A stretch of DNA of 64,000 nt, from the NCBI GenBank assembly GCA_049325535.1, contig JBMOKY010000001.1, positions 157,002 through 221,001 on the forward strand, given 5' to 3'. Below the pieces are notes generated by a model. The model saw only the letters and a list, made by a program, of their open reading frames with translations, did not search any database and was not told the origin of the DNA. Of this stretch, positions 22,095-38,451 are shown piece after piece (positions within the stretch are counted from its first letter, which is position 1; each line of letters starts with the position of its first letter). The translations under genes were made by a program, and so were the position numbers. This stretch comes from Patescibacteria group bacterium (GTDB taxonomy: Bacteria > Patescibacteriota > Patescibacteriia > UBA10025 > JAHIVO01).

Positions 22095-22123
22095 TTGATT
22101 TTATCGTGAAATTATGCTATAAT
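22095..22123 (+). promoter_or_regulatory. sigma70-like promoter (TTGATT-17 nt-TATAAT) upstream of the ATP-grasp gene
   Basis: TTGATT at 22095-22100, a 17-nt spacer and TATAAT at 22118-22123, ~58 nt upstream of the start at 22181, in a divergent intergenic region. Confidence 0.45.
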
Positions 22124-22180: not shown

Positions 22181-23131
22181 TTGATGAAGGAATTTGTACT
22201 CCCATTTAATAAATTGGGAAGGCGGCATGTCAGCCAGGCGGGTGGAAAAGGGGCCAATCTCGGTGAATTGACTGGACAGGGTGTCCCGGTGCCCCCTGGG
22301 TTTGTGGTATTACGGAGCGCATTTGACCGATTTATCAGGGAAACCGACATCATTATCGAGATTGACAAATGGCTGCACCAAGTCAATCCGAAGGATATGA
22401 CATCGATTGATCGGGCATCGCATACGCTGCGAGATGTTTTCCGCCGCACGCCGTTTCCGAGCGATCTTGCTTCAGTCATAGAGACGGCTTATAGCCGGCT
22501 GCACGCGTCTTCCGTTGCCGTCCGGTCATCTGCTACCGCCGAGGATTCCAGTATCGCTTCATGGGCGGGCGAACTCGAGTCATTCATGTTCATCACCAAA
22601 AAAAACCTTCTGGACACCGTGAAAACGTGCTGGTCATCCCTTTTTACCCCGCGGGCGATATTTTACCGATTTGAAAAAAAACTGCACCGCACGCCCGTGT
22701 CCGTGGCGGTCGTGGTTCAAGCGATGGTCAATTCCGAAGTATCGGGCATCACCTTTACTGTTCATCCCGTGAGTAACGACCACGGGCAGATGGTCATCGA
22801 AGCAGGGTGGGGCCAGGGTGAATCGATCGTTTCTGGTGCCATCACCCCTGATACCTATATTTTTGACCGGGTGACCGGCACTATCCTGGATATCAATGTC
22901 TCGGAACAACGGCAGATGATCGTGCGTGGGCGCAGCGGAACAGGAACAAAAAAAGTCTCTGTGCCAAAAAAACAGAAGGTACGCCAAAAGCTTACTGGTG
23001 CTCAAATCACGCATCTGGCCGCACTGTGTCAGAAGATTGAAAAACACTACGGCGCCCCGCAGGATATCGAATGGGTGCTGATAAAAAATAAATTTTACAT
23101 CGTCCAAACGCGTCCGATAACGACGCTGTAG
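22181..23131 (+). CDS. PPDK_N / PEP-synthase-type ATP-grasp nucleotide-binding domain protein, stand-alone (316 aa)
   Basis: LGRRHVSQAGGKGANLGEL...GVPVPPGFVV matches the N-terminal PEP/pyruvate-binding ATP-grasp domain of PEP synthase, PPDK and rifampin phosphotransferase. No swivel-His or substrate domain lies in the same ORF. Confidence 0.8.
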   Translation: MMKEFVLPFNKLGRRHVSQAGGKGANLGELTGQGVPVPPGFVVLRSAFDRFIRETDIIIEIDKWLHQVNPKDMTSIDRASHTLRDVFRRTPFPSDLASVIETAYSRLHASSVAVRSSATAEDSSIASWAGELESFMFITKKNLLDTVKTCWSSLFTPRAIFYRFEKKLHRTPVSVAVVVQAMVNSEVSGITFTVHPVSNDHGQMVIEAGWGQGESIVSGAITPDTYIFDRVTGTILDINVSEQRQMIVRGRSGTGTKKVSVPKKQKVRQKLTGAQITHLAALCQKIEKHYGAPQDIEWVLIKNKFYIVQTRPITTL

Positions 23132-23139
23132 GAAACTCC

Positions 23140-24510
23140 ATGCCACACACGCAATCAAACGACGAATGGCAAGACGGCTTCTTGGTCAAGGATCCAAGCG
23201 GCAGTTTTCGCAAAGTTACTGGAATGGATTTTATTGATGCCGATGCACCAATCCCGACAGTTGCTCCCGCCGCACCCCGGCCTGCTACTCCGCCACCGCC
23301 CCCTCGACCTGCCGCACCGGTATCAGCCCCGCGAAAGACTCCGCCGCCACCACCAACTCGAATGACTCCGGTGGCGCCGATTATGCCTCCTGCCCCACTC
23401 CAACCCCAGAAGCCAATCGCTGAGATGGGCATGGCTCCTTCGCCATTTATGGATCACGAAGACGCTGAAGAGATTAAACAGCATACGGCTGAACTACAGC
23501 AGATGGTGGCTCAGCCCGGACTGGACGTTTCGGTTACTATCAATGCCATCATCGAGCGGATTTTACGTGAGTATCGCCTGACCTTCGATACTGATGTGAT
23601 GCTGAAACGGTTTATCAAAGTCGTTGAGTCGCGATTTCGCGAGATTCGAAATTCACTGGAGACGGCCGATGTACTGCAGCGTCCGGAAAAAATCGGCGGA
23701 CTTGGGCTGCCGAGGGAAACCGTGCAGCAGATCATGGCTACGGTTGACGCTGAGATTGACGGATTGCATATGAAGAAAAGGTTGCCCGCTGTCCCGGCGC
23801 CCAAACCCAAAGCGCCATCCGCACGGGCCGTATCTACGGCTCCGCAGTCGCTGTACGCCGCGCCACCTCCGGCTTTTGTCCCTCGTCCCGGCGGCGCCGC
23901 ACCGAAACCGTCACCGACGGCACCACAACCATCGGCGATACAGCAAACATCAGATTTGGCCAAAGAAATAAAAGAGGAATTAACCCGGATTCCGCAGAAG
24001 CCCGCGGTGATTCCACCGGCACCTCCGGTTCCGCCGCCGGCACCAGCACCGAGCATATCTCCGGCCGCAGCGCCTGCCGCGAGCGAACCGCATGAACTGT
24101 ATGGTCAATCCCAGGGGGATATGCCGCGCATCCGTCCGGTGCAGCCAAATAAACCATACATGATTGACATCAAACAGCCGAGCGCAGTGGTCGGTCCGGT
24201 GGATGAGATACGGCAGATTGACCTGAAAGAATTTCGTCGTATGGGTACCAATCCCGGGGATTCGGCAGATCGGGTGTATGAAAAAATCGAACTATTGGAA
24301 GAAGAGTCCTGGGATATGCGCATGCAGGGTGTCCGAGCTTGGCGTCAGTCGCCATTATTTACCCTCTATGTGACTATCGGCCGGGCCAGCATGGAATCCG
24401 GCAATCCAGTCGACAGCGTCATCAGCAAACGCCAGCAGGCTGGTGAGCCGACGCTGCTTCCGGAGGAGTTTATGGCCGTCAACGCCTTAAATGCGAAATT
24501 AACCGTTTAG
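23140..24510 (+). CDS. hypothetical proline-rich protein (456 aa)
   Basis: Several PAxP/PPPP tracts and no TM segment. It sits immediately upstream of the T4SS-like genes. Confidence 0.55.
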   Translation: MPHTQSNDEWQDGFLVKDPSGSFRKVTGMDFIDADAPIPTVAPAAPRPATPPPPPRPAAPVSAPRKTPPPPPTRMTPVAPIMPPAPLQPQKPIAEMGMAPSPFMDHEDAEEIKQHTAELQQMVAQPGLDVSVTINAIIERILREYRLTFDTDVMLKRFIKVVESRFREIRNSLETADVLQRPEKIGGLGLPRETVQQIMATVDAEIDGLHMKKRLPAVPAPKPKAPSARAVSTAPQSLYAAPPPAFVPRPGGAAPKPSPTAPQPSAIQQTSDLAKEIKEELTRIPQKPAVIPPAPPVPPPAPAPSISPAAAPAASEPHELYGQSQGDMPRIRPVQPNKPYMIDIKQPSAVVGPVDEIRQIDLKEFRRMGTNPGDSADRVYEKIELLEEESWDMRMQGVRAWRQSPLFTLYVTIGRASMESGNPVDSVISKRQQAGEPTLLPEEFMAVNALNAKLTV

Positions 24511-24511
24511 T

Positions 24512-24943
24512 ATGCAACAGTTTATCGTTCCGCAATTTCTCGATGTCGAAAGCAAGATTATCGGACCCCTCACTGTCCGGCAGTTCATCACTTTTTTGAT
24601 CGGCGCGGGGATGATTTTCCTCGTTTTCAAACTGGCAACTTTTTGGGCGGCGGCTATCGAGGGTGTGCTGATTTTCGCTTTGACCGGCGTCTTTGCCTTT
24701 GCCAAGATCAATGGCCGGCCCTTCCACCATTTCTTGCTGAATCTGCTGCAGACGGTGCGCCGACCAACCTTGACCGTCTGGCACAAAAACTATGAACTGA
24801 GCAAAGTAAAAGAGGAAAAAGAAAAACAACCACCCGCCCGTCCACACAAAAAACAGCGACTGACCGAATCCCGACTAACCGAACTGTCGCTGGTAGTCGA
24901 TACGGGCGGCGCGTATCAGGAAGGCCTCGACGAGCTCAAATAA
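24512..24943 (+). CDS. PrgI/VirB3-like small T4SS membrane protein (candidate)
   Basis: 143 aa. N-terminal VPQFLDVESKIIGPLTVRQFITFLIGAG is followed by two hydrophobic helices. It lies directly upstream of the VirB4 homolog, as in Gram-positive-type T4SS. Confidence 0.45.
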   Translation: MQQFIVPQFLDVESKIIGPLTVRQFITFLIGAGMIFLVFKLATFWAAAIEGVLIFALTGVFAFAKINGRPFHHFLLNLLQTVRRPTLTVWHKNYELSKVKEEKEKQPPARPHKKQRLTESRLTELSLVVDTGGAYQEGLDELK

Positions 24944-24953
24944 AATATTCTCT

Positions 24954-25631
24954 ATGGCTACGGAATCTACTACAAAAACAGCTACCACTCCTTCCACCCA
25001 GCAGTACATGAATATCCTGGAGGTGAAGGATAATACGGTTATCCTCAAGGATGGAACGCTCCGAGCGGTCATTTTGGTATCGTCTATCAATTTCGCCCTG
25101 AAGTCGGAAGATGAACAAAATGCCGTCATGCAGGGATACGTTCAATTCCTCAATTCCATAGAGTTCCCTTTACAGATATTGATTCAGTCGCGGAAGCTCA
25201 ATATTGACGATTATCTTGAGCGACTGAAAGCCGTCGAGAAGGAGCAGACCAATGAGCTGCTGAAAATCCAGACGCGTGAGTATCGTCAGTACATCCAGGA
25301 ATTGGTTTCCCTGGCTGACATCATGAGCAAACGGTTTTATATCGTAGTGCCTTTTTCCGGCGGCACTATCAAGTCAAAAGGTTTTTTTACCCGGTTCAAG
25401 GAAGTGCTGACCCCGACAAATATCATCACCATCAAACAAAAGAAATTTGAAAAAAACCGCATCGAGCTGGCCAAGCGGATGGAGTATATCATTGATGGGC
25501 TGAGTTCAATCGGATTGAAGGCGGTCCAGCTCGACACGCAGAGTTTGATCGAGCTGTATTACAATACCTATAATCCGGATACGTACGACCAGCAGCCGCT
25601 CGTCGACGTGAGTAAACTCAATGTCGAATAA
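24954..25631 (+). CDS. VirB4/TrbE-family ATPase, N-terminal domain fragment (225 aa)
   Basis: YMNILEVKDNTVILKDGTLRAVILVSSINFALKSEDEQ is typical of VirB4 N-termini. It ends 2 nt before the start of the ATPase ORF, in a different frame. Confidence 0.55.
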   Translation: MATESTTKTATTPSTQQYMNILEVKDNTVILKDGTLRAVILVSSINFALKSEDEQNAVMQGYVQFLNSIEFPLQILIQSRKLNIDDYLERLKAVEKEQTNELLKIQTREYRQYIQELVSLADIMSKRFYIVVPFSGGTIKSKGFFTRFKEVLTPTNIITIKQKKFEKNRIELAKRMEYIIDGLSSIGLKAVQLDTQSLIELYYNTYNPDTYDQQPLVDVSKLNVE

Positions 25632-25633
25632 CT

Positions 25634-27550
25634 ATGGTTGAACTGTACCGCGCCACCCAGTCGGTTCCGACTGAGACTCCGCCCGAGCTGAGTCAGCAGG
25701 AAAAGGAACAGCTGGCCCGCGAACAACTCGAGGAAAAAAAGGAACTGCTCCAATCGGAGAAGATATATCGCCGTGGCGTGATGACGGTCAGGGATCTGAT
25801 CGCGCCCGCGTCCATGAAGATCGAATCTCGTTACCTCGAGCTTGGATCGCAGTATGTACGGACGGTATTTGTCGTGGCCTACCCTCGGTATATCCGCGTG
25901 GGGTGGTTCGCGCCGGTGATCAATCTGAATGTACCACTGGACATTTCCATGTATTTTTATCCAGTCAATTCGGAAATCATTCTGAAGCAGCTCCGGAATA
26001 AAGTCGGTGCGCTGGAGGCGCAAATACTGGCTGATGCGGAAAAGGGCGCCCCGCGTGATCCGATCCGCGAAACGGCGCTGCGGGACATCGAAAAACTCCG
26101 CGACGACCTGACCCAGGGCATCGAGCGTTTTTTCCAATTCGCCCTGTATGTGACCATGTACGCCAATACGAAGGAAGACTTGGACAAAATGACGGAAAAA
26201 GTGGAATCGCTCTTCGGATCGAGATTAGTCTATACCAAACGCGTGCTCTATCAGGCGGAACAGGGATTTATGTCGACCCTGCCCCTCTCGACGGATGAGC
26301 TGAATATCACGTTTAATATGGCCAGTTCGCCGGTCGCGTCATCATTTCCGTTTATTTCATCGGAATTGACCTCGGATAATGGTATTCTCTATGGCATCAA
26401 CCGGCATAATAATAGCCTGGTGCTGTTTGACCGGTTTTCCTTGCAAAATGCGAATTCTGTGGTGTTCGCCACCTCGGGTGCCGGTAAAAGTTACGCCGTC
26501 AAACTGGAGATTTTGCGGAGTATGATGCTGGGCACTGACGTCATCGTCATCGACCCGGAAATGGAATACAAATATTTGTCCGATGCCGTGGGCGGTACCT
26601 ATATCAATATTTCCCTGAGCTCGGACAGCAAGATCAATCCTTTTGATTTGCCCCGACCCACCCGTCGTGATGAAAAAGTTTCGGATATCATCCGTTCGGC
26701 GGTCATCACTCTGAAGGGCCTGCTGCGGCTGATGCTGGGGCAGTTTACCCATGAAGAGGATTCTATCATTGACCGTGCCCTGATCGAGACGTATGCCAAA
26801 AAAGACATCACCGCCGACGCTGATCTGACGCGCGTCGAGCCACCGCTGTTTAAGGATTTTGAGGAAGTGCTGGAGGGCATGGTCGGTGCCGATGAACTGG
26901 TCACTCGACTGAAAAAATATACCGAGGGCACCTTTGCCGGACTGCTGAATAATCCTACGAATGTGGAGATGAAAAATCAGCTGGTGGTATTTTCCGTGCG
27001 CGATCTGGAGGATGAGCTGAAACCGATCGGTATCCAGGTGATCGTGTCATATATCTGGAACACGGTCCGCTCGCAACTGAAGAAGCGTCTGATGGTCATC
27101 GACGAAGCCTGGTGGCTGATGCAGCAGGAAGATTCAGCCAAATTCATATTTGCCCTGGTGAAGCGGTGCCGTAAATACTACCTGGGAGTGACGACGATTA
27201 CCCAGGACGTGAACGACTTCCTGCGCTCGCCCTACGGCCAGGCCATCGTCACAAATTCGGCTATCCAGCTGCTGATGAAGCAGTCGCCGGCGGCTATCGA
27301 TCTGATTGCCAAGACGTTTCTGCTGACCGAAGGCGAAAAATACCTGCTGCTGGAGTGTGGCGTCGGTGAGGGAATATTTTTCGCCGGGTCCAAACATGCC
27401 GCCATCAAAGTCGTCGCCTCATACACCGAGGATCAGATCATCACTTCCGATCCGCGCCAGCTGCTGGAAATCGAGCAGGCAAAAAAAGAGTTTATCGAAT
27501 CCCAGAAAGAAGCGGCAACCGAAGCTGCTGAAGCCGCCTTTACGGGTTAA
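25634..27550 (+). CDS. VirB4/TrbE/PrgJ-family T4SS ATPase (C-terminal ATPase portion, 638 aa)
   Basis: Walker A SVVFATSGAGKSYAVK and Walker B MVIDEAWWLMQQ. Combined with the upstream fragment it is 863 aa, which is full VirB4 length. Confidence 0.8.
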   Translation: MVELYRATQSVPTETPPELSQQEKEQLAREQLEEKKELLQSEKIYRRGVMTVRDLIAPASMKIESRYLELGSQYVRTVFVVAYPRYIRVGWFAPVINLNVPLDISMYFYPVNSEIILKQLRNKVGALEAQILADAEKGAPRDPIRETALRDIEKLRDDLTQGIERFFQFALYVTMYANTKEDLDKMTEKVESLFGSRLVYTKRVLYQAEQGFMSTLPLSTDELNITFNMASSPVASSFPFISSELTSDNGILYGINRHNNSLVLFDRFSLQNANSVVFATSGAGKSYAVKLEILRSMMLGTDVIVIDPEMEYKYLSDAVGGTYINISLSSDSKINPFDLPRPTRRDEKVSDIIRSAVITLKGLLRLMLGQFTHEEDSIIDRALIETYAKKDITADADLTRVEPPLFKDFEEVLEGMVGADELVTRLKKYTEGTFAGLLNNPTNVEMKNQLVVFSVRDLEDELKPIGIQVIVSYIWNTVRSQLKKRLMVIDEAWWLMQQEDSAKFIFALVKRCRKYYLGVTTITQDVNDFLRSPYGQAIVTNSAIQLLMKQSPAAIDLIAKTFLLTEGEKYLLLECGVGEGIFFAGSKHAAIKVVASYTEDQIITSDPRQLLEIEQAKKEFIESQKEAATEAAEAAFTG

Positions 27551-27561
27551 TCACCATACCT

Positions 27562-28236
27562 ATGGCTCAATTTAATCTCGACCGACGTCAGATGCTGTAT
27601 ATAGCCGGATTGCTCCTGCTCCTTGTGGCGGTGGGTTTCGGCATATGGTTTTTGTATTTCCGCTCGACTGACGAGCCGACAAATACCAATCAGACCCCGG
27701 CGACCAATGCGCCGGTGGAAACCGTCAATGCCACTATCCCCACCACAAACGTCAATACTGCGGCACCGGCGCCTGAGTCGGTGGAGCTGACCCGGGTGTC
27801 CAATCTTTTTGCCGAACGGTTTGGCAGCTACACGTCCGTATCCGGATTTGAAAATATGATCAATCTGAAGCCCTACATGACCCTCAAAATGCAGCAAACC
27901 GCCGATGATTTCATCAAACGCCAGCCGGCGGTAACGGCCGAAACCCCCTATACTGAGGTGGTCACCAAGGTGGTTTCCACATCCATCACCGATCAGAATT
28001 CCAGCCAGGCTACGGTGCGTCTGAGCACCCAGCGCGTGGAGTCAGGAGACGAAATGGAACAGAATACCGTGTACTATCAGGATATCATCCTCACGCTGCA
28101 GCGGGCCGATGATATCTGGCTGGTCGATACAGCTACGTGGCAGGATGTGGGCGTGACAGCTCCTGATGACACCCCGCTGGATTCAAATGTAAATACCGAC
28201 GATATCCTCGATGATATCGTCAATGGCGAACAATAG
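27562..28236 (+). CDS. bitopic membrane protein, VirB8/PrgL-like candidate
   Basis: 224 aa with a single N-terminal TM (YIAGLLLLLVAVGFGIWFLYF) and a periplasmic/extracellular domain. Position next to VirB4 is the main support. Confidence 0.3.
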   Translation: MAQFNLDRRQMLYIAGLLLLLVAVGFGIWFLYFRSTDEPTNTNQTPATNAPVETVNATIPTTNVNTAAPAPESVELTRVSNLFAERFGSYTSVSGFENMINLKPYMTLKMQQTADDFIKRQPAVTAETPYTEVVTKVVSTSITDQNSSQATVRLSTQRVESGDEMEQNTVYYQDIILTLQRADDIWLVDTATWQDVGVTAPDDTPLDSNVNTDDILDDIVNGEQ

Positions 28237-28264
28237 CCCTCAGATTTTTTTAGCGATACGATCC

Positions 28265-29365
28265 ATGCGTAGCACGAAAAAATTCTTTGCCATCGGTGTC
28301 CTGGCAGCGCTCCTGCTGCCGCTGGTGGTTTTTGCGCAGACGTCGCCCAATGTCACCAATGACCCGTGCAAGATAGATGATTTTACTAAAGCCATCCGGC
28401 TGCAGATAGAGATCCCGGGCGTGACACAGACACCGGGAGTGCCGTTTGTGGACGGGCACTATGTGAAAAATTTAGGGTGCTACATCGTCGGTATCTACCG
28501 GTATTTCGTCGGGGTGGCCGGGATCCTGGCGACGGTATTTATCATGTATGGCGGTGTCCGCTATATCATTTCATTTGGCAATCCCGGATCGCTCCAGAGT
28601 GCCAAGGAAACCATCGAGAGTGCGCTGGTCGGACTGCTCATCGCCATCAGTTCCTATATGATTTTGTATTTTATCAATCCCAATCTGACGCGGTTTGATC
28701 TGGTCAATGTGACCGGTATCGCCAAATACGAAGATACCTGGTGTGAAGACCGCGAGCGGCCGGTGACGCCAGTCCAGGAGGGCGCGGTTAATTGCGGTAA
28801 TGTCGGCACTGAACAGGTGGAGGAGGGCACCGTGGCCAGCGCTGAATCAATAAAGTGCTTCTATCATGGTACTGATTGCTCCGATGTCGGGGAAACGTGC
28901 GTGCCTATTTCGGGCAGTGGGGCAGATCAAACATTTGAATGTCGGCTCATCTACGGCGATCAAACCTTATGCAAGGAAAAAGATCGTATCACTACCTGCG
29001 GTTTCCTGTGGCATGCGGGTGAAGCGGATCAGTGTGTCGGGCTTTCCTGTGGCGAAAATCGAGTCTGTGTTGGTGTTTTAGAAAATTCCAAGGCGACTCT
29101 CGAATGCGTTCAGTCCTGGCCAATCCTGTACCCCGTAGATAATAAGATGTACAATGCCGTGGTCGATGACTCGCTGGGCTGTGGTTATATCCGGTATGAT
29201 GACAGTTTTGGTTCGGTTACCAATCTAAAGATTGGCAGTGAATGTGAAGATAGGAAATCATGCGTAATTATGCCTCAAACTAGATATAATTTTTATGGCC
29301 CCACTGATTTGCGACCTCCTGATGCGACAATCGTTGGGGCATTTGTTAGTTTTGATTGCCAGTAA
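28265..29365 (+). CDS. secreted Cys-rich protein with a twin-helix hydrophobic module (VirB2/TrbC pilin-like or membrane hairpin)
   Basis: Signal peptide MRSTKKFFAIGVLAALLLPLVVFAQ. Module GVAGILATVFIMYGGVRYIISFGNPGSLQSAKETIESALVGLLIAISSYMILYFINPNL, then a ~220-aa Cys-rich C-terminal domain. The ORF track's longer frame starts at 28211. Confidence 0.65.
   Translation: MRSTKKFFAIGVLAALLLPLVVFAQTSPNVTNDPCKIDDFTKAIRLQIEIPGVTQTPGVPFVDGHYVKNLGCYIVGIYRYFVGVAGILATVFIMYGGVRYIISFGNPGSLQSAKETIESALVGLLIAISSYMILYFINPNLTRFDLVNVTGIAKYEDTWCEDRERPVTPVQEGAVNCGNVGTEQVEEGTVASAESIKCFYHGTDCSDVGETCVPISGSGADQTFECRLIYGDQTLCKEKDRITTCGFLWHAGEADQCVGLSCGENRVCVGVLENSKATLECVQSWPILYPVDNKMYNAVVDDSLGCGYIRYDDSFGSVTNLKIGSECEDRKSCVIMPQTRYNFYGPTDLRPPDATIVGAFVSFDCQ
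28517..28690 (+). repeat. copy A of a duplicated twin-helix module (nucleotide level)
   Basis: Identical to 31272-31336 at ~63 of 65 nt (atcctggcgacggtatttatcatgta[t/c]ggcggtgtccgctatatcat[t/c]tcatttggcaatc), plus the downstream shared ggactgctcatcgcc. Confidence 0.7.
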
Positions 29366-29436
29366 TTGACAGGCAAATACGGGGCTATCTGAATTTTTGT
29401 CTCATTAATCCATGTTCTGAATTCTTATAAAACAAT

Positions 29437-30702
29437 ATGAACCGTCGAGTATTACTCATCATCGCTTTTATCCTGATCGTCATCGTGTTTGGCGCGCTGA
29501 TTTATTTCGTATTTTTGCGCGATCTCTTTGGCCCGGATACAAATGCAAATAATGCCAATACCCCGACCAATCAGGTGACCAATGGCGTACTGCCGAATAC
29601 CAACAGTGCGACCAATGGCGTGCCGGTCAATGGCCTGACCAATGTAAACCGGCTGGTGAACATCGAACCGACAACCAATATCAATGCCGGTCCGGATCAA
29701 ATCGCCCAAGGCGGGGAGACGCTGGCCGGGTATGTGGCCTCGGCTGATGCCGAGGGAGTGTCGACTACTCCGGATGGAAATGGCATCCGATTTTATGACC
29801 GGGATCAGGGACTCTTTTTCATGCTGGATTCGCTGGGTACGAAAGTAAAACTATCCGAGCAGCTTTTTCCCCAGGCGGAGAGCATCGTCTGGGCGCCCAA
29901 GAGCAACAAAGCCATCGTCACCTATCCTGACCAGAGCAAGATCGTCTATGATTTCGACCGACAGAGTCAGGTGACCCTGCCGCGGGAATGGACCGACGTC
30001 GCCTTCAATCCAAACGGCGACAAACTCGCTTTCAAAAATGAATCAACAAATACCGATGACCGGTGGCTGGCCATATCCAATGCCGACGGTTCCCAAGTAC
30101 AGGGCATCGAACCGCTGGGGGACAACGGTAATAATGTCGACGTGAATTGGTCGCCGACCGGGCAGGTGGTGGCCACCTATCGCGAGGCGCAAAATGCCAG
30201 CCAGCAAGAGGTTTATTTGGTCGGTACTCAGGGGGAAAATTTCAAATCAATCCCCACCGATGGCCGGGGGTTTGAGGGTACCTGGTCTCCCGATGCCAGC
30301 CAGCTGCTCTACAGCGTGTACAATGCCGATTCCCGCTATAATCCCGTGCTCTATCTGGTGGACGCGTCTGGGGACAGTACCGGCGGTAATACGGTGAATT
30401 TGGGTTTGCAGACGTGGTCATTCAAATGCGCTTTTGCCCACGGCAGCCCGGCCGCTTACTGCGCGGTCCCGCGTTTTCTGCCTGATGGTTCCGGTATCGT
30501 CCCGGAAGTCGCGACCAATACCAATGATCTCATTTACCGGATCAATACTGATACTGGCATCCGCACGTTGGTGGCTATGCCATCGCTTGCCTCGGGAAAC
30601 GAAAATTACACGGTGGTCAATGTCGTCATGTCAAATGACGATCGCCGACTGTACTTCACCGACGCCAATACCGGTAATATTTATTCGATCCAACTTCAAT
30701 AA
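29437..30702 (+). CDS. membrane-anchored TolB-like PD40 beta-propeller protein
   Basis: N-terminal TM LLIIAFILIVIVFGALIYFVFL. PD40-like blades DVAFNPNGDKLAF, VDVNWSPTGQVVATY, FEGTWSPDASQLLYSV. Confidence 0.6.
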   Translation: MNRRVLLIIAFILIVIVFGALIYFVFLRDLFGPDTNANNANTPTNQVTNGVLPNTNSATNGVPVNGLTNVNRLVNIEPTTNINAGPDQIAQGGETLAGYVASADAEGVSTTPDGNGIRFYDRDQGLFFMLDSLGTKVKLSEQLFPQAESIVWAPKSNKAIVTYPDQSKIVYDFDRQSQVTLPREWTDVAFNPNGDKLAFKNESTNTDDRWLAISNADGSQVQGIEPLGDNGNNVDVNWSPTGQVVATYREAQNASQQEVYLVGTQGENFKSIPTDGRGFEGTWSPDASQLLYSVYNADSRYNPVLYLVDASGDSTGGNTVNLGLQTWSFKCAFAHGSPAAYCAVPRFLPDGSGIVPEVATNTNDLIYRINTDTGIRTLVAMPSLASGNENYTVVNVVMSNDDRRLYFTDANTGNIYSIQLQ

Positions 30703-32168
30703 TGGTTCCCATGTCACACCGATTCCTCATCCTGTTCATCGGATTACTCGGCGTATGGTCAGTCGTGGGGGGAGTACTGCCAGCCGATGCCCAACAGGAG
30801 GCGTGCTGTGTCCGCGGACCGGGTGACTGCTATCAAAAGCTCGATTATGAAGACATCGCCGCTTGTGCCGGCGGGTATTCACTGCAATTGCAGGCCTGTT
30901 CGACGATAAAAACTTGCCAAGCGGCATCGACGACCCAAGTACTGTGCTGTGTGTGTCGGGCCGGTGTGGGGGATTACTCCAATGGAACGTGTTTTGGTCC
31001 CCAGACTCAGACGCAACCCTGCGGACCGTCTACCGCACCGTGCGAGCAGAGTACGGAGGCCTGTACAGAAATAGATTTATGCAAGGAGTGGGCGGCAAAA
31101 ACAGAGACCCTCGACATCCCGGAGGACAATCCCCGGCTGGTTTGGTTCACCCCGCAGGTGACTATTCCTGGTTCGCAGTTGTTTAATCAGGGAACTCCCA
31201 TCTCCATCACCGGAGCGACGCTCGGGGAATATATCGTAGCGGTGTATTTCTTCCTGGTGAGCTCGGCTGGCATCCTGGCGACGGTATTTATCATGTACGG
31301 CGGTGTCCGCTATATCATCTCATTTGGCAATCAGTCAAAAATCGCCGCGGCCCAGGAAACGATCACCTCAGCGCTGATGGGACTGCTCATCGCCGTGGCA
31401 TCATATATGATACTACTGACCATCAATCCGAATCTGGTGAAATTTGACGGTATCAATGCCGAGCGTCAATTTCCGGTGGTGCAGCAGGAACGGGCGCAGA
31501 TCACGGAAAAAGCCGCCGGGTATTCGGTCACGGCCAATGTCTCGCGTTTTGACGGGTGCCTGACCGAAGCGGCTACGCTCAATGGCGTCAATCGCGACTG
31601 GCTGAAAGCACTGATGCTGGTGGAATCCGCGGGCAACCCGTCGGCAAAATCGCCTGCCGGCGCCTACGGGCTGCTACAGTTGCTGCCGACCACTGCCCAG
31701 CAGTATTCACCGAGCGTGACGGCGCAGCAACTACTCAATCCCGCTATCAATATCAGGATTGCCGCCCAGTATTATAAAGATTTACTGTATCATACCTGTC
31801 CGACCAAAGCGAAATACAAGAGCGGCAAATCAGTCCCGTGCTATCCGGACCAGACCCAGTGCAAACGGGGAGACGTGAAATACGCCAATGCCGCCTATAA
31901 TGGCGGTGTGGGTGCCAACTGTTCCAGTGTCACCTGTCCGGGCCAGACCTGGTGGGAGTGCGTGGAAAATGCCGGTTATGCTGAGACGCGGAACTATGTA
32001 GTGAAGGTACAGGCAGCATATGATAAAATCCAGCAATCGAAGCAAAACCCAGGGCAGTTCCCGCTCTACGTCTGGCAGGATGCGGGCGCGCCAACATGTA
32101 ATGAGCTGCAGGCACAGCCCACGTCCATGGTGCCGATGCTCAGTTTTCCCCTGGTCTATACCATGTAA
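30702..32168 (+). CDS. secreted Cys-rich protein fused to the twin-helix hydrophobic module and a C-terminal SLT lytic transglycosylase domain (VirB1/PrgK-like)
   Basis: Signal peptide, a ~150-aa Cys-rich region, module AGILATVFIMYGGVRYIISFGNQSKIAAAQETITSALMGLLIAVASYMILLTINPNL, then SLT motifs LMLVESAGNPSAKSPAGAYGLLQLLPTTAQQY and AAYNGGVG. Confidence 0.75.
   Translation: MVPMSHRFLILFIGLLGVWSVVGGVLPADAQQEACCVRGPGDCYQKLDYEDIAACAGGYSLQLQACSTIKTCQAASTTQVLCCVCRAGVGDYSNGTCFGPQTQTQPCGPSTAPCEQSTEACTEIDLCKEWAAKTETLDIPEDNPRLVWFTPQVTIPGSQLFNQGTPISITGATLGEYIVAVYFFLVSSAGILATVFIMYGGVRYIISFGNQSKIAAAQETITSALMGLLIAVASYMILLTINPNLVKFDGINAERQFPVVQQERAQITEKAAGYSVTANVSRFDGCLTEAATLNGVNRDWLKALMLVESAGNPSAKSPAGAYGLLQLLPTTAQQYSPSVTAQQLLNPAINIRIAAQYYKDLLYHTCPTKAKYKSGKSVPCYPDQTQCKRGDVKYANAAYNGGVGANCSSVTCPGQTWWECVENAGYAETRNYVVKVQAAYDKIQQSKQNPGQFPLYVWQDAGAPTCNELQAQPTSMVPMLSFPLVYTM
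31265..31440 (+). repeat. copy B of the duplicated twin-helix module
   Basis: See 28517..28690. Near-identical 65-nt core, ~80% identity over ~175 nt. Confidence 0.7.
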
Positions 32169-32239
32169 GCGTCAATCCTATTCCGAAAATAACTACAATA
32201 TATTCTTGTTCAAACTGTGACGCCCAATTCCCCAAGTGG

Positions 32240-33529
32240 ATGGGGCGTTGTTCAGAATGTGGGCAGTGGGGTACCCTGGCTAAACATGAGGTGGTGCGCC
32301 AAGCGAAGCGCGGTGCAACCGCGCATGCCCCGGCCGGCACGGTACAGTCGCTCGCTGATATATCGAGTGAGACGGCGCGGCGCATCGTCACCGGCGTCAG
32401 GGAATTTGACCGGGTGCTCGGCGGCGGAATCGTGCCGGGGGGATTATTACTGGTGGGCGGCGACCCCGGCATCGGCAAATCGACATTGATCCTGCAGATC
32501 GGCGGTCGATTGGCGGAGGGTGGACAGGAGGTACTGTATATTTCCGGTGAGGAGTCAGCTGTCCAAGTAAAAGATCGGTTTCAGCGCCTCGGATTGAAAA
32601 CACCGAATCTCAAATTTCTCGGAGAGACAGATATCGACGTGGTGTGCAGTACGGTCCAGCAACAGCGACCGGCGTTGGTGGTATTGGATTCTATTCAGAC
32701 GGCTCATACGGCCGACGTGGATGCGGAGCCGGGGAGTATCGGCCAGCTCAGAGCCTCAACCGGTAAGCTCGTCGGCCTGTCGAAAGAGTGGAGCGTTCCC
32801 ATCATTGTCATCGGCCATGTGACTAAACAGGGTGCGGTAGCCGGGCCGCGTACCCTGGAGCATATGGTTGACGTGGTCTTGTACCTGGAGGGCGACCAGC
32901 ATCATAATTTTCGGGTACTGCGCGCGGTCAAAAATCGTTTCGGTTCGACGGCGGAGGTAGGGGTGTTTGATATGCATCAGGACGGCTTGCATGAGGTGAA
33001 AAATCCCTCGCAGCTATTTCTGGCGGATCGGCAGCAGCAGGCAGGATCGGTGGTGACCGCGGTCATCGAGGGTTCACGGGCTTTTTTGGTCGAGGTGCAG
33101 GCGCTGGTATCCCGTTCAAATTTCGGCTACCCTCAGCGGCGATCGGTCGGATTCAGCCTGAATCGGCTGCAAGTATTGATAGCGGTATTGATGAAAAAAG
33201 CAGGATTGTTCCTGGGTAATCAGGATGTTCATGTCAGCATTGCCGGCGGATTTCACGTGGCTGAGCCGGCGGTGGATCTGGCGGTCTGTATGGCTATCGC
33301 TTCGGCGTTTAAAAATAAACCCTTAGCCGCAACCACGGTGGTGATCGGAGAGGTGGGTTTAGGCGGCGAGCTTCGTTCTGTCAGCGGATTGGACAAGCGA
33401 TTAGAAGAAGCGAAAGCGCTCGGATTTACCGAAGTCGTTATGCCGGCGATGCGCCAGATGCGTGCACCGGCTGGATTACAATTTCTCACCGAATCATCGG
33501 CGAGCGATGCAATTCGCAATTACCTGTAG
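32240..33529 (+). CDS. radA: DNA repair protein RadA/Sms
   Basis: CSECGQWGT zinc-finger half, RecA-like Walker A GDPGIGKSTL, KNRFG motif (AVKNRFGSTAEVGVFDM) and a Lon-like C-terminal domain. The in-frame upstream codons encode YSCSNCDAQFPKW, the first CxxC, with no ATG/GTG/TTG. The true start is therefore probably a non-canonical codon near 32180-32200. Confidence 0.85.
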   Translation: MGRCSECGQWGTLAKHEVVRQAKRGATAHAPAGTVQSLADISSETARRIVTGVREFDRVLGGGIVPGGLLLVGGDPGIGKSTLILQIGGRLAEGGQEVLYISGEESAVQVKDRFQRLGLKTPNLKFLGETDIDVVCSTVQQQRPALVVLDSIQTAHTADVDAEPGSIGQLRASTGKLVGLSKEWSVPIIVIGHVTKQGAVAGPRTLEHMVDVVLYLEGDQHHNFRVLRAVKNRFGSTAEVGVFDMHQDGLHEVKNPSQLFLADRQQQAGSVVTAVIEGSRAFLVEVQALVSRSNFGYPQRRSVGFSLNRLQVLIAVLMKKAGLFLGNQDVHVSIAGGFHVAEPAVDLAVCMAIASAFKNKPLAATTVVIGEVGLGGELRSVSGLDKRLEEAKALGFTEVVMPAMRQMRAPAGLQFLTESSASDAIRNYL

Positions 33530-33532: not shown

Positions 33533-35596
33533 TCACTCCAGATGGATGGTCTGATAGAAATCCCGGAGCCGTTTTTGAATATCGGGAAATTGTTTGAGTT
33601 CTGGGTCGACAGCAATCAATTGGGTAGCACATTCCTTTGCCTGCGCGATGATTGGGTAATCGGCGAGCGTGGCGATTTTTAATTCGGGAAAACCAGATTG
33701 CCTGAGGCCATATAATTCGCCCGGGCCGCGTAATTCCAGATCTTTTTCCGCGAGCTCGAAACCATTAGCACTGGTGACTAGGGCCTGGAGTCGTTCTGTC
33801 GTTTTTTCGCTGGTAGTTTCGGTAAAGACCAGACAATATGATTGGTGTGCGGCGCGGCCCACCCGGCCGCGGAATTGGTGAAGCTGGGCCAGGCCAAAGC
33901 GTTCCGCGCCTTCGATCATCATGATGGAGGCGTTTGGCACGTCGATGCCGACCTCCACCACGGCGGTAGCGACCAGTATATCAGTCCGATGCTGGGAAAA
34001 ATCATCCATTGCCTGCGTTTTGTCCGTCGCTTTCAGTTTGCCATGCACCAGCCCCAGGTGAAGGTCGGGAAACACCTCTTTCCGTAGGTGGTCGTATTCA
34101 GCGGTGGCGGCACGGACACCGAGTTTGTCCGATTCCTCGATCAGTGGACAGATGACAAATGCTTGTCGGCCCGCCGCTATTTCCTTACGGATAAATCCGT
34201 AAGCGGCGTCGCGTTTTTCCGGCGGAACGATATGGGTCATGATTTTTTTTCGGCCCGGGGGTAGTCGGAGGATGGTGCTGATATCGAGATCGCCATAGAC
34301 GGTGAGCGCCAGCGATCGCGGGATGGGCGTGGCGGTCATAGAGAGCAGGTGCGGCGTGGCGGCAGCGGATTTGAGCTTGAGCTGTTTGCGTTGGTCGACG
34401 CCGAATCGGTGTTGTTCGTCGATAACCACCAGGCCGAGTGAGGCAAATTCGACCGTGTCCTGAATCAGGGCGTGAGTGCCGATGACCATATGTACCGACC
34501 CCGCCTGTATGGCAGCGGCGATTGTTTGTTTGGATACTTGTTTGCCGTCCAGCCATCGCTGGCTGTGGGTCAGCAGAGCGACCGAGTTGCCTACATCTTT
34601 GGTAATACGTGAAATCGTTTGGTGGTGCTGGAGCGCCAGAATTTCGGTTGGTGCCATCAGTGCCGTCTGATATCCCGCGGCGATGACATTGAGCATGGCG
34701 ATAGTCGCCACCACTGTTTTGCCCGATCCGACATCACCCTGGAGCAGACGGTTCATCGGATATGCGTGTGTCAGATCCTTCAGGATAGTCCAGGTTGCCT
34801 GGCGCTGGTCCTCAGTCAGCCGGAAGGGCAGTCGTGCCACGAATTCTTTGGTTAGACTTTCATTAAATGCTATGGCCGGCGCGATTTCCTGGCGCACGCG
34901 GTGCCGCAATGACTGGGCCTGTAATTGTACCAGCAGAAGTTCATTGAATTTCAGACGGGTGCGTGCCTGCGCCAGTGTTTTTTTATTGGTAGGAAAGTGT
35001 ACCTCACGGAGTGCTTGCCCCAGAGATATCAGACCGTATTTCTTGAGTACCTCATCTGGCAGCCATTCGGGGATATGCTGAGCCAACGGCAGAATCATTT
35101 TTATGAGGTAGCGGAGCTGTTTTTCAGTCAGCCGCTCGGTGAGTGAATATATCGGGACAATCCGCGCCGTATGGGTCTGTTCTTTTTTCGCTTTTTCATA
35201 TGATGGGCCGGCCAGTTGCAATCCATATTGAGTCATTTCGGCCTTGCCAGAAAAATACGCGGTATCGCCCTGGGCGAGCAGTTTGGTGATAAATGGCTGA
35301 TTGAACCAGACTGCTTTGATACTGCCAGTATCATCAGATATGATCGCCTCAGTCACGTACATGCGCCGGCGGTATGCTCGTTTGTTCGCGATCAAGGTTA
35401 CCTGACCGCGGATGGTCATGACTACGCCCTGCCGTATGTCGCGAATGGGCACAATGCTGCTGTAATCGTCGTAGCGGAATGGGAAGTGCCAAAGTAAATC
35501 CTGCACGGTGTGCAGACCGAGCTTACTGAAGCGTTTGGCCAGCACCTCGCCGATGCGCGGGAGCTGGTGGATAGGGGTTTCAAGTGTGATCGTCAT
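33533..35596 (-). CDS. recG: ATP-dependent DNA helicase RecG
   Basis: N-terminal LPRIGEVLAKRFSKLGLHTVQDLLWHFPFRYDDYS, helicase motifs GDVGSGKTVVA and DEQHRFG, and C-terminal QLHQFRGRVGR. Confidence 0.9.
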   Translation of the reverse strand: MTITLETPIHQLPRIGEVLAKRFSKLGLHTVQDLLWHFPFRYDDYSSIVPIRDIRQGVVMTIRGQVTLIANKRAYRRRMYVTEAIISDDTGSIKAVWFNQPFITKLLAQGDTAYFSGKAEMTQYGLQLAGPSYEKAKKEQTHTARIVPIYSLTERLTEKQLRYLIKMILPLAQHIPEWLPDEVLKKYGLISLGQALREVHFPTNKKTLAQARTRLKFNELLLVQLQAQSLRHRVRQEIAPAIAFNESLTKEFVARLPFRLTEDQRQATWTILKDLTHAYPMNRLLQGDVGSGKTVVATIAMLNVIAAGYQTALMAPTEILALQHHQTISRITKDVGNSVALLTHSQRWLDGKQVSKQTIAAAIQAGSVHMVIGTHALIQDTVEFASLGLVVIDEQHRFGVDQRKQLKLKSAAATPHLLSMTATPIPRSLALTVYGDLDISTILRLPPGRKKIMTHIVPPEKRDAAYGFIRKEIAAGRQAFVICPLIEESDKLGVRAATAEYDHLRKEVFPDLHLGLVHGKLKATDKTQAMDDFSQHRTDILVATAVVEVGIDVPNASIMMIEGAERFGLAQLHQFRGRVGRAAHQSYCLVFTETTSEKTTERLQALVTSANGFELAEKDLELRGPGELYGLRQSGFPELKIATLADYPIIAQAKECATQLIAVDPELKQFPDIQKRLRDFYQTIHLE

Positions 35597-35693: not shown

Positions 35694-36347
35694 TCAGGTC
35701 GCCGGGGTGAGCTGAACGGTCGAATCGACGACGGTCAGTCGGTGTACAGCCGTGATGGGCTTCCTTCCTTCCGTCAGTCGGCGATGGCCGCGTTCGTTGC
35801 GGTCGTAGGCCATGATCAGGTGTCCGTGGGCATCGCGGAAGGGTGTCCGTCCGCTGAAATTGATGCTCAGGGTGTATCGTCCGTCGACAGGCTCGTTGTT
35901 TTCGAAGAACGGGTTGCGATAGGCTCGTACATCCCAGATAGCCTCGCTGACCAGCCGGTCGTAGAGTTTGCTGCACCGGTTCAGGTAGTCGAGTGCCCCG
36001 TCCTCAATTTCGACCCGGTCTGCCGGTCCCCAGAAAAATCTGATCACCCAGAATTTTCCGCCGAATTCCATTTTCCGTTCTTGCAGGTAGGCGTCGTAGA
36101 GACGGTATCCTGCCCGTGTCAGATCATGGGGGAGTCCCTTACCGGACACCAGTCTGGTCGGTCCGATGAACTGAGTTCCGGGGATCCGTTTGCCGGTGAG
36201 TGGTACGGCTGCTTCTTCGGCGAGTTTTCGACAGGCCTCCGGCAACTTGCTGATTTCGGTAGTGTGGAACTGTACCATCACATGCTCGACAGTTTCATCG
36301 AGTAGGCCGTATACCTGCGTCGCCATGCTTGTAACCTCCTGTGACAT
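35694..36347 (-). CDS. hypothetical protein (217 aa)
   Basis: ORF with coding-like composition and no recognisable motif. Confidence 0.5.
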   Translation of the reverse strand: MSQEVTSMATQVYGLLDETVEHVMVQFHTTEISKLPEACRKLAEEAAVPLTGKRIPGTQFIGPTRLVSGKGLPHDLTRAGYRLYDAYLQERKMEFGGKFWVIRFFWGPADRVEIEDGALDYLNRCSKLYDRLVSEAIWDVRAYRNPFFENNEPVDGRYTLSINFSGRTPFRDAHGHLIMAYDRNERGHRRLTEGRKPITAVHRLTVVDSTVQLTPAT

Positions 36348-36542: not shown

Positions 36543-36727
36543 ACGATGAGATGATATTGCGGGTTTCATTCCGTTACGCGACGGATCCACAACTCATTAT
36601 TTTTTTTCTCTCATTCTGATACGGCTGATGTTCTAGCCATATGAAATTCTCGATCTTTGCACTACTGTCTCATATCTGACATACCACGTCAAGCATGCTG
36701 TATCCATTTACTGACGATCGGTTGCTG

Positions 36728-37246
36728 CTATATTTTAAACATGCGGCCGAAACCGTCAGAAAATGATTCATTTTCTTTTTCCACGTCTTCGACGAGATGC
36801 TTGCCTAATATTTTTCGAACCTCAAGCGGGTTTTGATTCTGCAGGAACACCGAGAGCGACGGTCGGAATCCCTTAAATTCCAGATACAGCATCTTTACTT
36901 CTGGCGGTTCGTAAATAATCCAAAAACTTTTTATGTCTGACCATCGATAGTATGATCGGCTACCGAGCTGGATGCCGCGTTCACGAATCGCAATCTCCAG
37001 CTGGGCTGGTTTTCGGCGCCCACGGAGGTAGATGATCAGGCCAAATAGGAGAATCAGTACAAGGAAAAGATAGTTGTGCGTAATCAATCCAAAAATAACC
37101 AAGCCAATCGTTATACTGATGGCAATGACATACCACCAAAAACCGCGACGGTACGGAACAAACTCCGGAAATTCCCAGTGCAGTAAATCTGCGCCCAGGT
37201 CCGGTGGTTGTACCGTATTATTTTCTTCTTTTTGAACGTCGGCCAT
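36728..37246 (-). CDS. hypothetical membrane protein (172 aa, 2 TM)
   Basis: WWYVIAISITIGLVIFGLI and LFLVLILLFGLIIYL hydrophobic helices. Confidence 0.55.
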   Translation of the reverse strand: MADVQKEENNTVQPPDLGADLLHWEFPEFVPYRRGFWWYVIAISITIGLVIFGLITHNYLFLVLILLFGLIIYLRGRRKPAQLEIAIRERGIQLGSRSYYRWSDIKSFWIIYEPPEVKMLYLEFKGFRPSLSVFLQNQNPLEVRKILGKHLVEDVEKENESFSDGFGRMFKI

Positions 37247-37506: not shown

Positions 37507-37512
37507 ATTGGC

Positions 37513-37650: not shown

Positions 37651-37661
37651 AAAAATAGATA

Positions 37662-37776: not shown

Positions 37777-38451
37777 TTATGAATTGCCGTGGGCAAGTAC
37801 CAGGCCCCAGACGCGGTGCACGCCATGCCGCTTGAGAACCGTTGCGCAGGCCGCCAGGGTAGCGGTTGTGGTAGCAACGTCGTCTATGAGTATAACATTT
37901 TTCAGTGTTTTTTTAAAGTCCACGCCGATGGTAAATGCTTCTTCCATATTTTTCCAACGTTCCGCCCGATTCATTTGCGCCTGCTGGCCGGTATATCGCG
38001 CACGTTTGAGTGCCTGAGACATCAGGGGCATGGCAAAGGCGGTTGCCACCAGCCGGGCAATGCGTTCCGATTGGTTGAAGCCCCGTTCGCAGAAACGCCG
38101 TCGGTGGAGCGGCACCGGAACGATTGATGTTTCTGGAACGTGCAGTATACGACTTGCAGCGCTCTTGTCAATCCGTAAGAGCGCCTCAGTCATGATGGAG
38201 CCGAGTGTGTCGGCAATAGCGCCGATGCCATTATATTTTGCCGTATGAATCAGCGCGTGTATAATCGGCTGGTCATACGTGGTAAGCGCAAAAACACCAT
38301 CGAGTGGCACATCCACAGGAATCGGTCGTGGAGTGAGCTGGATGGCGTGATGACATTGCCGGCAAAGCCAGGCGCCGGTTTGGCCGCAGCCGAGACAGTG
38401 GATGGGGAAGAGACAATCGGCAAGCCAAGTATAGAGCGTGTGTACAAACAT
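37777..38451 (-). CDS. comF: ComF-family phosphoribosyltransferase (competence protein ComFC-like)
   Basis: N-terminal Cys4 CLGCGQTGAWLCRQC and C-terminal PRTase motif VILIDDVATTTATL. Confidence 0.8.
   Translation of the reverse strand: MFVHTLYTWLADCLFPIHCLGCGQTGAWLCRQCHHAIQLTPRPIPVDVPLDGVFALTTYDQPIIHALIHTAKYNGIGAIADTLGSIMTEALLRIDKSAASRILHVPETSIVPVPLHRRRFCERGFNQSERIARLVATAFAMPLMSQALKRARYTGQQAQMNRAERWKNMEEAFTIGVDFKKTLKNVILIDDVATTTATLAACATVLKRHGVHRVWGLVLAHGNS

Follow-up and report, generated by a model that had tools for sequence, protein, structure and literature searches.

The closest described relatives of the locus reported here are the type IV secretion systems (T4SSs) of Patescibacteria. 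Southlakia epibionticum carries a Gram-positive-like T4SS with pilins in which recognisable coupling or relaxase proteins are lacking (Wang et al. 2023, PMC10633639), and both the T4SS and the pilins are essential for its epibiotic growth while comEC is dispensable (PMC10633639). A survey of 3035 genomes placed 2425 VirB4 proteins in a Patescibacteria clade that lies within MPF_FATA (Quinonero-Coronel et al. 2025, PMC12102498). The same survey found TrsD, PrgI, VirB6, arrays of PF18895 VirB2 proteins and rare relaxases, detected VirB8 homologs almost only in class ABY1, and reported that ABY1 virB4 loci "commonly include" comF, recG and radA (PMC12102498). Among secretion systems of its kind, that of Patescibacteria is the first on which the growth of its own carrier bacterium has been shown to depend (PMC12857230, PMC11665869). 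Here we describe a T4SS gene cluster from a Patescibacteria group bacterium (assembly GCA_049325535.1, contig JBMOKY010000001.1, positions 157,002 to 221,001 of the forward strand). This whole stretch of 64,000 nucleotides (nt) is called the window below, and positions are counted from its first nucleotide.

The locus is a chromosomal T4SS cluster that is vertically conserved. It very probably belongs to the described Patescibacteria T4SS family, with the arrangement reported for class ABY1, and is in that sense already known, since all of its essentials have been published (Wang 2023, Cell; Quinonero-Coronel 2025, Microb Genom). With similarly high confidence, we regard it as a typical Patescibacteria T4SS, vertically inherited on the chromosome, that descends from monoderm MPF_FATA conjugation machinery. 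A full monoderm-type inner apparatus is encoded, consisting of VirB3, a split VirB4, a VirB8-like protein and an extended VirB6.

Gene content and conservation of the cluster

All plausible open reading frames (ORFs) of at least 120 amino acids (aa) in the window, including one that is longer than 3002 aa and cut by the 3' end of the window, were scanned against Pfam, and the locus was compared with 80 related loci from GTDB species-representative genomes of Kerfeld-, Uhr-, Buchanan-, Komeili- and Falkowbacteria and other Patescibacteria. We take the named lineages to be GTDB class ABY1. The features are collected in Table 1.

An earlier note on this DNA (the original prediction) had placed a minimal, chromosomal T4SS-like module at positions 24512-32168. 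Its genes lie where it had put them and the chromosomal setting holds, but the conserved cluster starts at 23140, or at 6003 if VirB6 is counted, and the size had been understated: the 80-genome comparison gives at least 12 conserved genes, pilins included. Every part that had been named was recovered by hidden Markov model (HMM), fold or synteny, and the housekeeping flanks radA and recG were found with their Pfam domain architectures. What had been overlooked are two pilin-domain proteins, a proline-rich (Pro-rich) protein upstream and comF downstream. The SLT gene had also been listed before the propeller gene, whereas the actual order after VirB4 is VirB8-like, pilin, propeller, pilin-SLT and RadA.

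The region is gene-dense. Junctions between the + strand genes from 22181 to 33529 range from -26 to +71 nt, and a promoter and terminator scan, in which promoters were not enriched relative to shuffled sequences, gave a single plausible promoter-like site at 22095-22123. GC content is 0.51-0.55 at 22-32 kb and 0.47-0.58 in the rest of the window.

Gene order around virB4, for which the original prediction had proposed a synteny check, is conserved in the 80 Patescibacteria genomes as giant protein, VirB6, (the "441" protein), Pro-rich protein, VirB3, TrsD, VirB4 and VirB8. VirB4 is 70-93% identical across the 80 loci, while the accessory proteins are just 21-52% identical; the conservation of VirB4 points to strong purifying selection on the core gene. 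Beyond VirB8, two arrangements occur. In 34 loci the order is like that of the window, with pilin, propeller, pilin-SLT and RadA followed by recG, a 172-aa gene and comF on the opposite strand, and in 31 loci this block is inverted, such that comF comes directly after the VirB8-like gene on the same strand. The gap between the VirB8-like gene and comF, measured in 29 loci, ranges from -688 to +220 nt and mostly amounts to overlapping ORFs or at most ~60 nt. Families that recur in the 80 neighbourhoods and have no homolog in the window are a DsbA-like thioredoxin (21 loci), an MPG DNA glycosylase (7 loci), a 23S-IVS protein, an M23 peptidase (4 loci) and a Cas2/PaaX-like protein.

Table 1. Features of the T4SS cluster and its surroundings, with positions in the window.
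Feature	Position	Strand	Basis
Giant surface protein, at least 1969 aa, CBM_4_9 and dockerin	107..6016	+	Pfam; ORF open to the window's 5' end
Extended VirB6/TrbL-like protein, 1594 aa	6003..10787	+	Homologs, fold, synteny
"441" protein, 441 aa, conserved but fast-evolving, encoded between the VirB6 and Pro-rich genes	10800..12125	+	tblastn, BLASTP
PPDK_N (ATP-grasp) protein, stand-alone	22181..23131	+	Pfam
Pro-rich cytoplasmic protein, 456 aa, two conserved domains	23140..24510	+	Synteny
VirB3 equivalent (PrgI family), small membrane protein	24512..24943	+	Pfam PrgI PF12666
TrsD/TraC-like protein, N-terminal VirB4 domain as its own ORF, 225 aa	24954..25631	+	Profile matches
VirB4 ATPase, monoderm MPF_FATA CD1110-like type	25634..27550	+	NCBIfam, Pfam, PDB match
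VirB8-like bitopic protein, 224 aa	27562..28236	+	Transmembrane segment and predicted NTF2-like fold
VirB2-like pilin-domain protein, Cys-rich C-terminal extracellular domain	28211..29365	+	Pfam T4SS_pilin
Bitopic beta-propeller (TolB/PD40-like), N-terminal transmembrane segment, Asn-rich linker	29437..30702	+	TolB profile
Fusion of signal peptide, Cys-rich domain, VirB2-like hairpin and VirB1-like SLT lytic transglycosylase	30702..32168	+	Pfam
RadA/Sms recombination helicase	32240..33529	+	Pfam AAA_25, ChlI, Lon_C architecture
RecG helicase	33533..35596	-	Pfam RecG_wedge, DEAD, Helicase_C, RecG_dom3_C
172-aa membrane protein, weak bPH/DUF5673-like domain	36728..37246	-	Transmembrane segment, homolog matches
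ComF (ComFC-type), zinc-ribbon region and phosphoribosyltransferase domain	37777..38451	-	TIGR00201

A split VirB4 and its VirB3 partner

The ATPase of the cluster matches the NCBIfam model conju_CD1110 ("VirB4-like conjugal transfer ATPase, CD1110 family") with 363.6 bits against a cutoff of 325, over profile positions 153-730 of 752. The second-best NCBIfam model is that of the VirB4 of a Mycoplasma integrative and conjugative element (ICE), at 270 bits, and the MPF_T and MPF_F models score far lower. Pfam P-loop_TraG is matched with 99.5 bits, and the top PDB match is the C-terminal domain of Thermoanaerobacter VirB4 (4AG5, E 4e-46), with matches to R388 TrwK also retrieved. A Walker A motif ATSGAGKS was read from the translation, and a Walker B motif LMVIDEAW is present. 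The VirB4 ATPase with GAGKS and DEAW motifs had thus been predicted rightly, but as a single gene, and it is in fact encoded by two ORFs.

The first of these along the strand, the TrsD-like ORF, aligns with N-terminal sections of three VirB4 models (among them NF045975, E 9.4e-12, and conju_CD1110, positions 17-119) as well as with the TrsD model NF041427 (E 5.7e-5), and carries a precomputed match to the TraC-like family PF26593. It lies in a different frame from the ATPase ORF and supplies the ~150 N-terminal profile positions that are missing from the latter. The same two ORFs are kept in all 80 related loci, and for this reason the split is not a sequencing error.

VirB4 has at least 8000 homologs. 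The 120 matches listed are 75-92% identical to it, and nearly all of the named ones among them come from Patescibacteria (Kerfeldbacteria, Nomurabacteria and the Parcubacteria group). An identical VirB4 protein was found on seven metagenome contigs with the same neighbours. Judged by its sequence, the window's VirB4 appears to belong to the Patescibacteria-type MPF_FATA VirB4 proteins.

The small membrane protein encoded 5' of the TrsD-like ORF scored 33.4 bits against Pfam PrgI (PF12666, cutoff 27), in agreement with the PrgI/VirB3-like gene of the original prediction, and gave a weak TcpE match too. It has a hydrophobic segment at residues 25-43, and the gene is present in 78 of the 80 related loci.

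VirB8-like and VirB6-like membrane proteins

The protein encoded after VirB4 had been put forward as a bitopic VirB8-like candidate, and it has one N-terminal transmembrane segment (residues 12-30) followed by an Asn/Thr-rich linker and a domain at residues ~68-196 with a predicted VirB8-like NTF2 fold. Sequence and profile searches returned nothing significant for it in Pfam or the PDB. Its AlphaFold (AF2) model has a pLDDT of ~90 over residues 68-196 and was built on an alignment of five sequences, which is shallow because the word-indexed homolog search found only 5 relatives. The top Foldseek matches of the model in the PDB are the VirB8 domain of PrgL from pCF10 (7AED, E 1.1e-5) and CagV (6IQT), with the VirB8-containing R388 entries 8RTD and 8RTA, Rickettsia VirB8 and TcpC also matched at E <= 1.5e-3. 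The gene comes directly after virB4 in 69 of the 80 related loci.

The VirB6/TrbL-like polytopic protein consists of an N-terminal polytopic part of ~380 aa, with 7 hydrophobic segments in residues 32-366, and a hydrophilic, charged C-terminal region of ~1200 aa. Neither the 1594-aa protein nor its N-terminal 420 aa alone gave a direct TrbL or VirB6 match in Pfam or NCBIfam, and a search of PDB sequences with a homolog-based profile retrieved no VirB6. As the direct profile searches were without a match, the assignment was made by transitive homology and a fold match. Precomputed PF04610 (TrbL) or PF19590 matches are common among the homologs (E down to 1e-124), and of the 18 aligned ones (E 1e-35 to 1e-124), 11 matched Pfam TrbL PF04610 (best E 1.2e-6). 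For the model of residues 1-420 (AF2, pLDDT 71), TrwI/VirB6 chains from the R388 T4SS fill the first four places among the PDB matches (E 3e-3 to 7e-3, probability 1.0, ~293 aligned columns), with E above 0.1 from the fifth match onward. The gene lies on the same strand within 10 kb 5' of virB4 in 46 of the 80 related loci, and it ends 0-25 nt before the Pro-rich gene in at least 18. Homologs, predicted fold and synteny thus lend the VirB6 reading of the original prediction indirect support.

Pilin-domain proteins, propeller and lytic transglycosylase

The first of the two pilin-domain proteins matches Pfam T4SS_pilin (PF18895) with 31 bits (cutoff 26.6). Its likely start is at 28265, giving 366 aa, and 366-aa gene calls are present in the related loci L005 and L006. 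It has a signal or transmembrane segment, a two-helix hairpin and 18 Cys residues, all of which lie outside the hairpin. A further, weak match of this protein, at 15.9 bits (E 0.008) where the cutoff is 40, is to the "Mbov_0395 family pilin-like conjugal transfer protein" of the Mycoplasma ICE. The Mbov_0395 match hints that VirB2-like hairpins may already occur in some monoderm MPF_FATA systems rather than having been borrowed from diderm ones.

The second protein matches Pfam SLT with 61.1 bits and T4SS_pilin with 21.6 bits, retrieves Slt70-type structures from the PDB, and contains the SLT motifs ES, GLLQ and AYNGG, so that the VirB1-like SLT protein of the original prediction is retained with its catalytic motifs. 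Over 80 residues, its hairpin shares 68% identity with the one encoded by the 28265 gene; since the SLT protein carries the same pilin hairpin, it is a pilin-SLT fusion. It likewise has a signal or transmembrane segment, and 22 Cys residues in Cys-rich regions outside the hairpin. Pilin and SLT were found in one ORF in 13 of the 43 related loci in which the protein was detected.

Between the two genes lies the propeller gene, whose stop is overlapped by 1 nt by the start of the pilin-SLT gene. The TolB-like propeller that had been predicted shows a partial match to TIGR02800 TolB (E 2.5e-9) and a weak PD40 match, with a transmembrane segment at residues 5-23, and its gene adjoins pilin genes in 37 related loci.

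The Cys-rich regions of both pilin proteins fit extracellular, disulfide-bonded domains tethered by the hairpin. In 21 relatives a DsbA-like thioredoxin gene lies in the cluster, mostly beside the propeller gene (e.g., L037:17724-18404; Thioredoxin_4 E 6e-26, weak TraF). It is absent from the window's own cluster. Its presence in the relatives fits Cys-rich pilin ectodomains.

Search for mobility genes

Among the window ORFs of at least 120 aa, Pfam gave no match for a type IV coupling protein (T4CP; T4SS-DNA_transf, TraG-D_C, TrwB or FtsK_SpoIIIE), for relaxase families or for integrases and recombinases. No T4CP, relaxase or integrase family recurs among the clustered ORFs of the 80 related neighbourhoods. 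The absence of VirD4, relaxase and integrase stated by the original prediction is therefore borne out both for the 64-kb window and at the level of recurrent families. Because a relaxase, a T4CP, an integrase and a mobile-element signature were not found, we do not consider the system a conjugation machine.

Upstream and downstream neighbours

The Pro-rich gene ends 1 nt before the PrgI start, and in 75 of the 80 related loci it is likewise found immediately 5' of PrgI. Its product has no transmembrane segment, and no match was found for it in Pfam or the PDB, even with 28 homologs included. Its C-terminal 117 aa match 2263 cluster representatives (E <= 1e-3), and in the 150 listed the match is at or near the C-terminus. 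By sequence and position, it is a candidate cytoplasmic partner of the T4SS core from a large family without a Pfam model.

In the window, VirB6 is separated from the core by 12.35 kb holding the "441" gene, three tandem PEP-utilizer-domain genes, ribE/ribH, and HAD, PRT, histidine-phosphatase and PPDK_N genes. The block is partly common to relatives: L009, L012 and L014-L016 have PEP-utilizer and PPDK_N genes and L008 has PPDK_N, while the closest relative, L007, contains only a homolog of a 377-aa ORF in the block. The three tandem paralogs (12224-16802; 540, 537 and 449 aa) each carry a PEP-utilizers mobile domain at the C-terminus; their N-terminal regions lack annotation. The PPDK_N gene lies 5 kb from them and 8 nt 5' of the T4SS core operon, and together they look like a split PPDK/PEP-synthase-like phosphotransfer system. 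The "441" protein has no Pfam match; homologs occupy the same position in 12 related loci by tblastn, and BLASTP (E 4e-10) links it to a member of a further family found there in 19 loci.

At the 5' end of the window, the giant protein matches Pfam CBM_4_9 (E 1.6e-13) and Dockerin_1 (E 3.4e-9). Its ORF is open from base 2 and overlaps the VirB6 start by 14 nt; in 19 + 18 related loci, the place directly 5' of VirB6 is likewise taken by a large ORF, homologous or analogous to it. We consider the giant protein a candidate adhesin and a putative associate of the T4SS.

Downstream, radA starts 71 nt 3' of the pilin-SLT gene on the same strand and is linked to the cluster in 33 related loci, as a conserved neighbour with a putative functional link to the T4SS. 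The gene recG is beside the cluster in 38. In 26 related loci, which include both arrangements, the 172-aa gene adjoins recG and, if comF was detected, comF too; of 23 homologs of its product, 10 weakly match DUF5673 and 3 match bPH_7. ComF matches TIGR00201 comF (E 4.6e-29) and GntX (E 2.2e-26).

Other features of the window were also recorded. At 35694-36347 (-) lies a 217-aa ORF without a Pfam match, for which L007 alone among the 80 related loci has a homolog; its coding status is uncertain because a 209-aa ORF overlaps it on the opposite strand. Genes for tRNA-Arg(GCG), tRNA-Ser(TGA) and tRNA-Ser(GCT) lie at 36466-37751 (-), between recG and comF, and no adjacent integrase was found. GC content dips to 0.473 at 42001-44000 (0.51-0.58 elsewhere), around a LemA gene, a 170-aa ORF and the start of a 1329-aa protein. 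From 43474 to 64000 (+) runs a series of very large secreted or surface proteins: the 1329-aa protein (BNR/Sortilin repeats), proteins of 1234, 794 and 579 aa, and, continuing past the window end, an fn3-containing ORF of more than 3002 aa. Most of them have an N-terminal hydrophobic segment.

Possible function of the system

The hypotheses proposed for the Patescibacteria T4SS are effector delivery and the uptake of nucleotides or DNA (2025 FEMS review, PMC12857230; 2024 PNAS perspective, PMC11665869). DNA uptake or host interaction rather than conjugation, the roles that the original prediction had named, are likewise hypotheses in the literature (PMC10633639, PMC12102498, PMC11665869).

Following established T4SS biology, VirB4, anchored by VirB3, would hexamerise on a VirB6/VirB8 membrane platform and drive the formation of a tube or short pilus, for which the pilin-hairpin proteins are extracted and polymerised, while the hairpin-tethered SLT would open the cell wall locally. 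The tube or pilus would then contact the host bacterium and move macromolecules. If the direction is import, single-stranded DNA could be handed to the ComFC, RadA and RecG encoded beside the T4SS.

We tentatively favour the import of host nucleic acid, by analogy with Helicobacter pylori ComB and archaeal Ced, although we would give it somewhat less than an even chance and infer its direction and cargo entirely. We lean this way because of the comF/radA/recG linkage, the ComB/Ced-like part list without a T4CP, and the inability of the organisms that host the system to make nucleotides. The 31 related loci with comF directly after virB8 speak for import as well. If the importer reading is true, the system would supply nucleotides and recombination substrates, and this would explain an essential, nearly universal system in organisms unable to make nucleotides. 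Patescibacteria make up a large share of bacterial diversity. That about half of the related loci have comF right after the VirB8-like gene offers a handle on the nucleic-acid-import hypothesis.

Several points weigh against this interpretation. A T4CP may be encoded elsewhere in the same genome (PMC12102498), as T4CP homologs lie far from virB4 in most Patescibacteria genomes (PMC12102498). The comF/recG/radA linkage may simply be a conserved housekeeping neighbourhood, in which the MPG DNA glycosylase is also found in 7 loci, and in most classes, including Paceibacteria and Microgenomatia, it is dnaA/dnaN and not competence genes that lie near virB4 (PMC12102498). Reading the window-like and the inverted arrangement as independent evidence for selection on the linkage was rejected, because a single in-place inversion separates them. 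Saccharibacteria transformation uses ComEC and type IV pili (PMC12857230), and that of S. epibionticum needs them, yet comEC is dispensable there and the T4SS is essential (PMC10633639, PMC12857230), so that a nucleic-acid cargo, if any, would not pass via ComEC. The VirB6 and VirB8 assignments draw on modestly scoring fold matches; the NTF2 fold is common, with generic NTF2 proteins scoring ~3e-4 against the VirB8-like model, and for this reason the VirB8 call combines the fold with the bitopic topology and the position right after virB4. Finally, the support comes from genomes rather than from experiments on ABY1-class organisms.

The main alternative, though itself doubtful, is effector or protein export, in which the T4SS would inject or release proteins that manipulate or lyse the host bacterium, with Dot/Icm, Cag, the Xanthomonas killing T4SS and the Streptococcus suis 89K system as analogues. 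Giant secreted or surface proteins do flank the cluster, but effector-like genes are not recurrent in the 80 neighbourhoods, where it is DNA-processing genes that recur. T4SSs that lack a relaxase are mostly protein translocators (PMC12857230), and Wang et al. lean towards protein export or an "alternative capacity" on the ground that relaxase and coupling proteins are missing (PMC10633639). Known effector translocators, however, mostly need a T4CP; the window gave no match for one, and in S. epibionticum the distantly encoded T4CP is dispensable (PMC12102498).

It is unlikely that the system is an organelle for adhesion only, in which VirB4 and its partners assemble VirB2-like filaments whose Cys-rich ectodomains attach the epibiont to its host and nothing is translocated. 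Two pilin-hairpin proteins with large Cys-rich ectodomains, the DsbA-like gene in the cluster of 21 relatives and the essential pilin arrays of S. epibionticum (PMC10633639) are in keeping with such a role, as are the tubular structures, possibly T4SS pili, that a 2026 preprint describes at the host interface of another Patescibacterium, one that feeds on host RNA. Adhesion and motility are, however, already served by type IV pili in Patescibacteria (PMC12857230, PMC11665869), the extended VirB6 channel subunit is kept and tightly linked, and the large domains fused to both pilins may not suit a packed VirB2 helix.

That the locus is an ordinary or decaying ICE, with relaxase, T4CP and integrase outside the window or recently lost, is extremely improbable and was rejected: VirB4 does score as a "conjugal transfer ATPase, CD1110 family" and relaxases do occur in a minority of Patescibacteria (109 in 103 genomes; PMC12102498), but the mobility genes were found neither in the window nor as recurrent families in relatives, the synteny with housekeeping genes is vertical and kept across 80 divergent genomes, GC at 22-32 kb is within the range of the rest of the window, VirB4 is a strongly conserved core gene, and the tRNA genes have no integrase beside them.

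Returning to import, a more specific proposal can be put forward, though we consider it rather improbable in its entirety. By analogy, the ABY1 T4SS would be a ComB/Ced-like importer that takes host nucleic acid through a VirB2-like tube and the VirB6 channel directly to ComFC, RadA and RecG, bypassing ComEC, with the Pro-rich protein as a new cytoplasmic subunit replacing the coupling protein.

Comparison with known systems

ComB and Ced combine VirB4, VirB6 and a VirB2-like pilin without a T4CP. This part set is also given in PMC12102498 and PMC11665869. The window system resembles H. pylori ComB and archaeal Ced/Ted in having a T4SS core with no relaxase or T4CP gene found nearby, a VirB4-like ATPase, a polytopic VirB6-like protein and VirB2-like pilins. 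It does not belong to Ced, because VirB4 matches the CedB model with only 38.4 bits against a cutoff of 700 (CedD, 18.8 bits), and ComB differs from it as a diderm MPF_T system that has VirB7, VirB9 and VirB10. By analogy, the system may nevertheless work like ComB or Ced.

Among the monoderm MPF_FATA systems (pCF10 Prg, pIP501 Tra, pGO1 Trs, the Clostridioides difficile CTn CD1110 family and the Mycoplasma ICE), the likeness lies in a VirB4 that passes the CD1110 equivalog cutoff and in PrgI, TrsD, a PrgL-like VirB8 fold, VirB6 and a cell-wall hydrolase. In contrast to them, a relaxase, a T4CP, a PrgB-type adhesin and a mobile-element context are lacking here, and VirB2-like pilin hairpins, which are generally missing from monoderm systems (PMC12857230), are present.

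With the Patescibacteria-clade T4SSs (PMC12102498; S. epibionticum SEML1_0006-0019), the locus shares its MPF_FATA-like VirB4, separate TrsD-like ORF, chromosomal location, PrgI/VirB3, TrbL/VirB6 and PF18895 pilins near virB4, with relaxase and T4CP not found nearby, and nothing essential differs. The Saccharimonadia cluster has instead a 6-gene pilin array and peptidase/lysozyme genes, while the comF, recG and radA context and the VirB8 homolog agree with the ABY1 loci of PMC12102498. As such, the window adds a clean, complete ABY1-type locus and not a new kind of system. Some parts of the window and of the related loci go beyond the main text of the 2025 survey, in which the terms "propeller", "TolB", "PD40" and "SLT" do not occur (PMC12102498): the pilin-SLT fusion, the membrane-anchored propeller, the DsbA-like gene of the relatives, the two unannotated conserved families (Pro-rich and "441"), and the 12.35-kb insertion of metabolic genes in this lineage.

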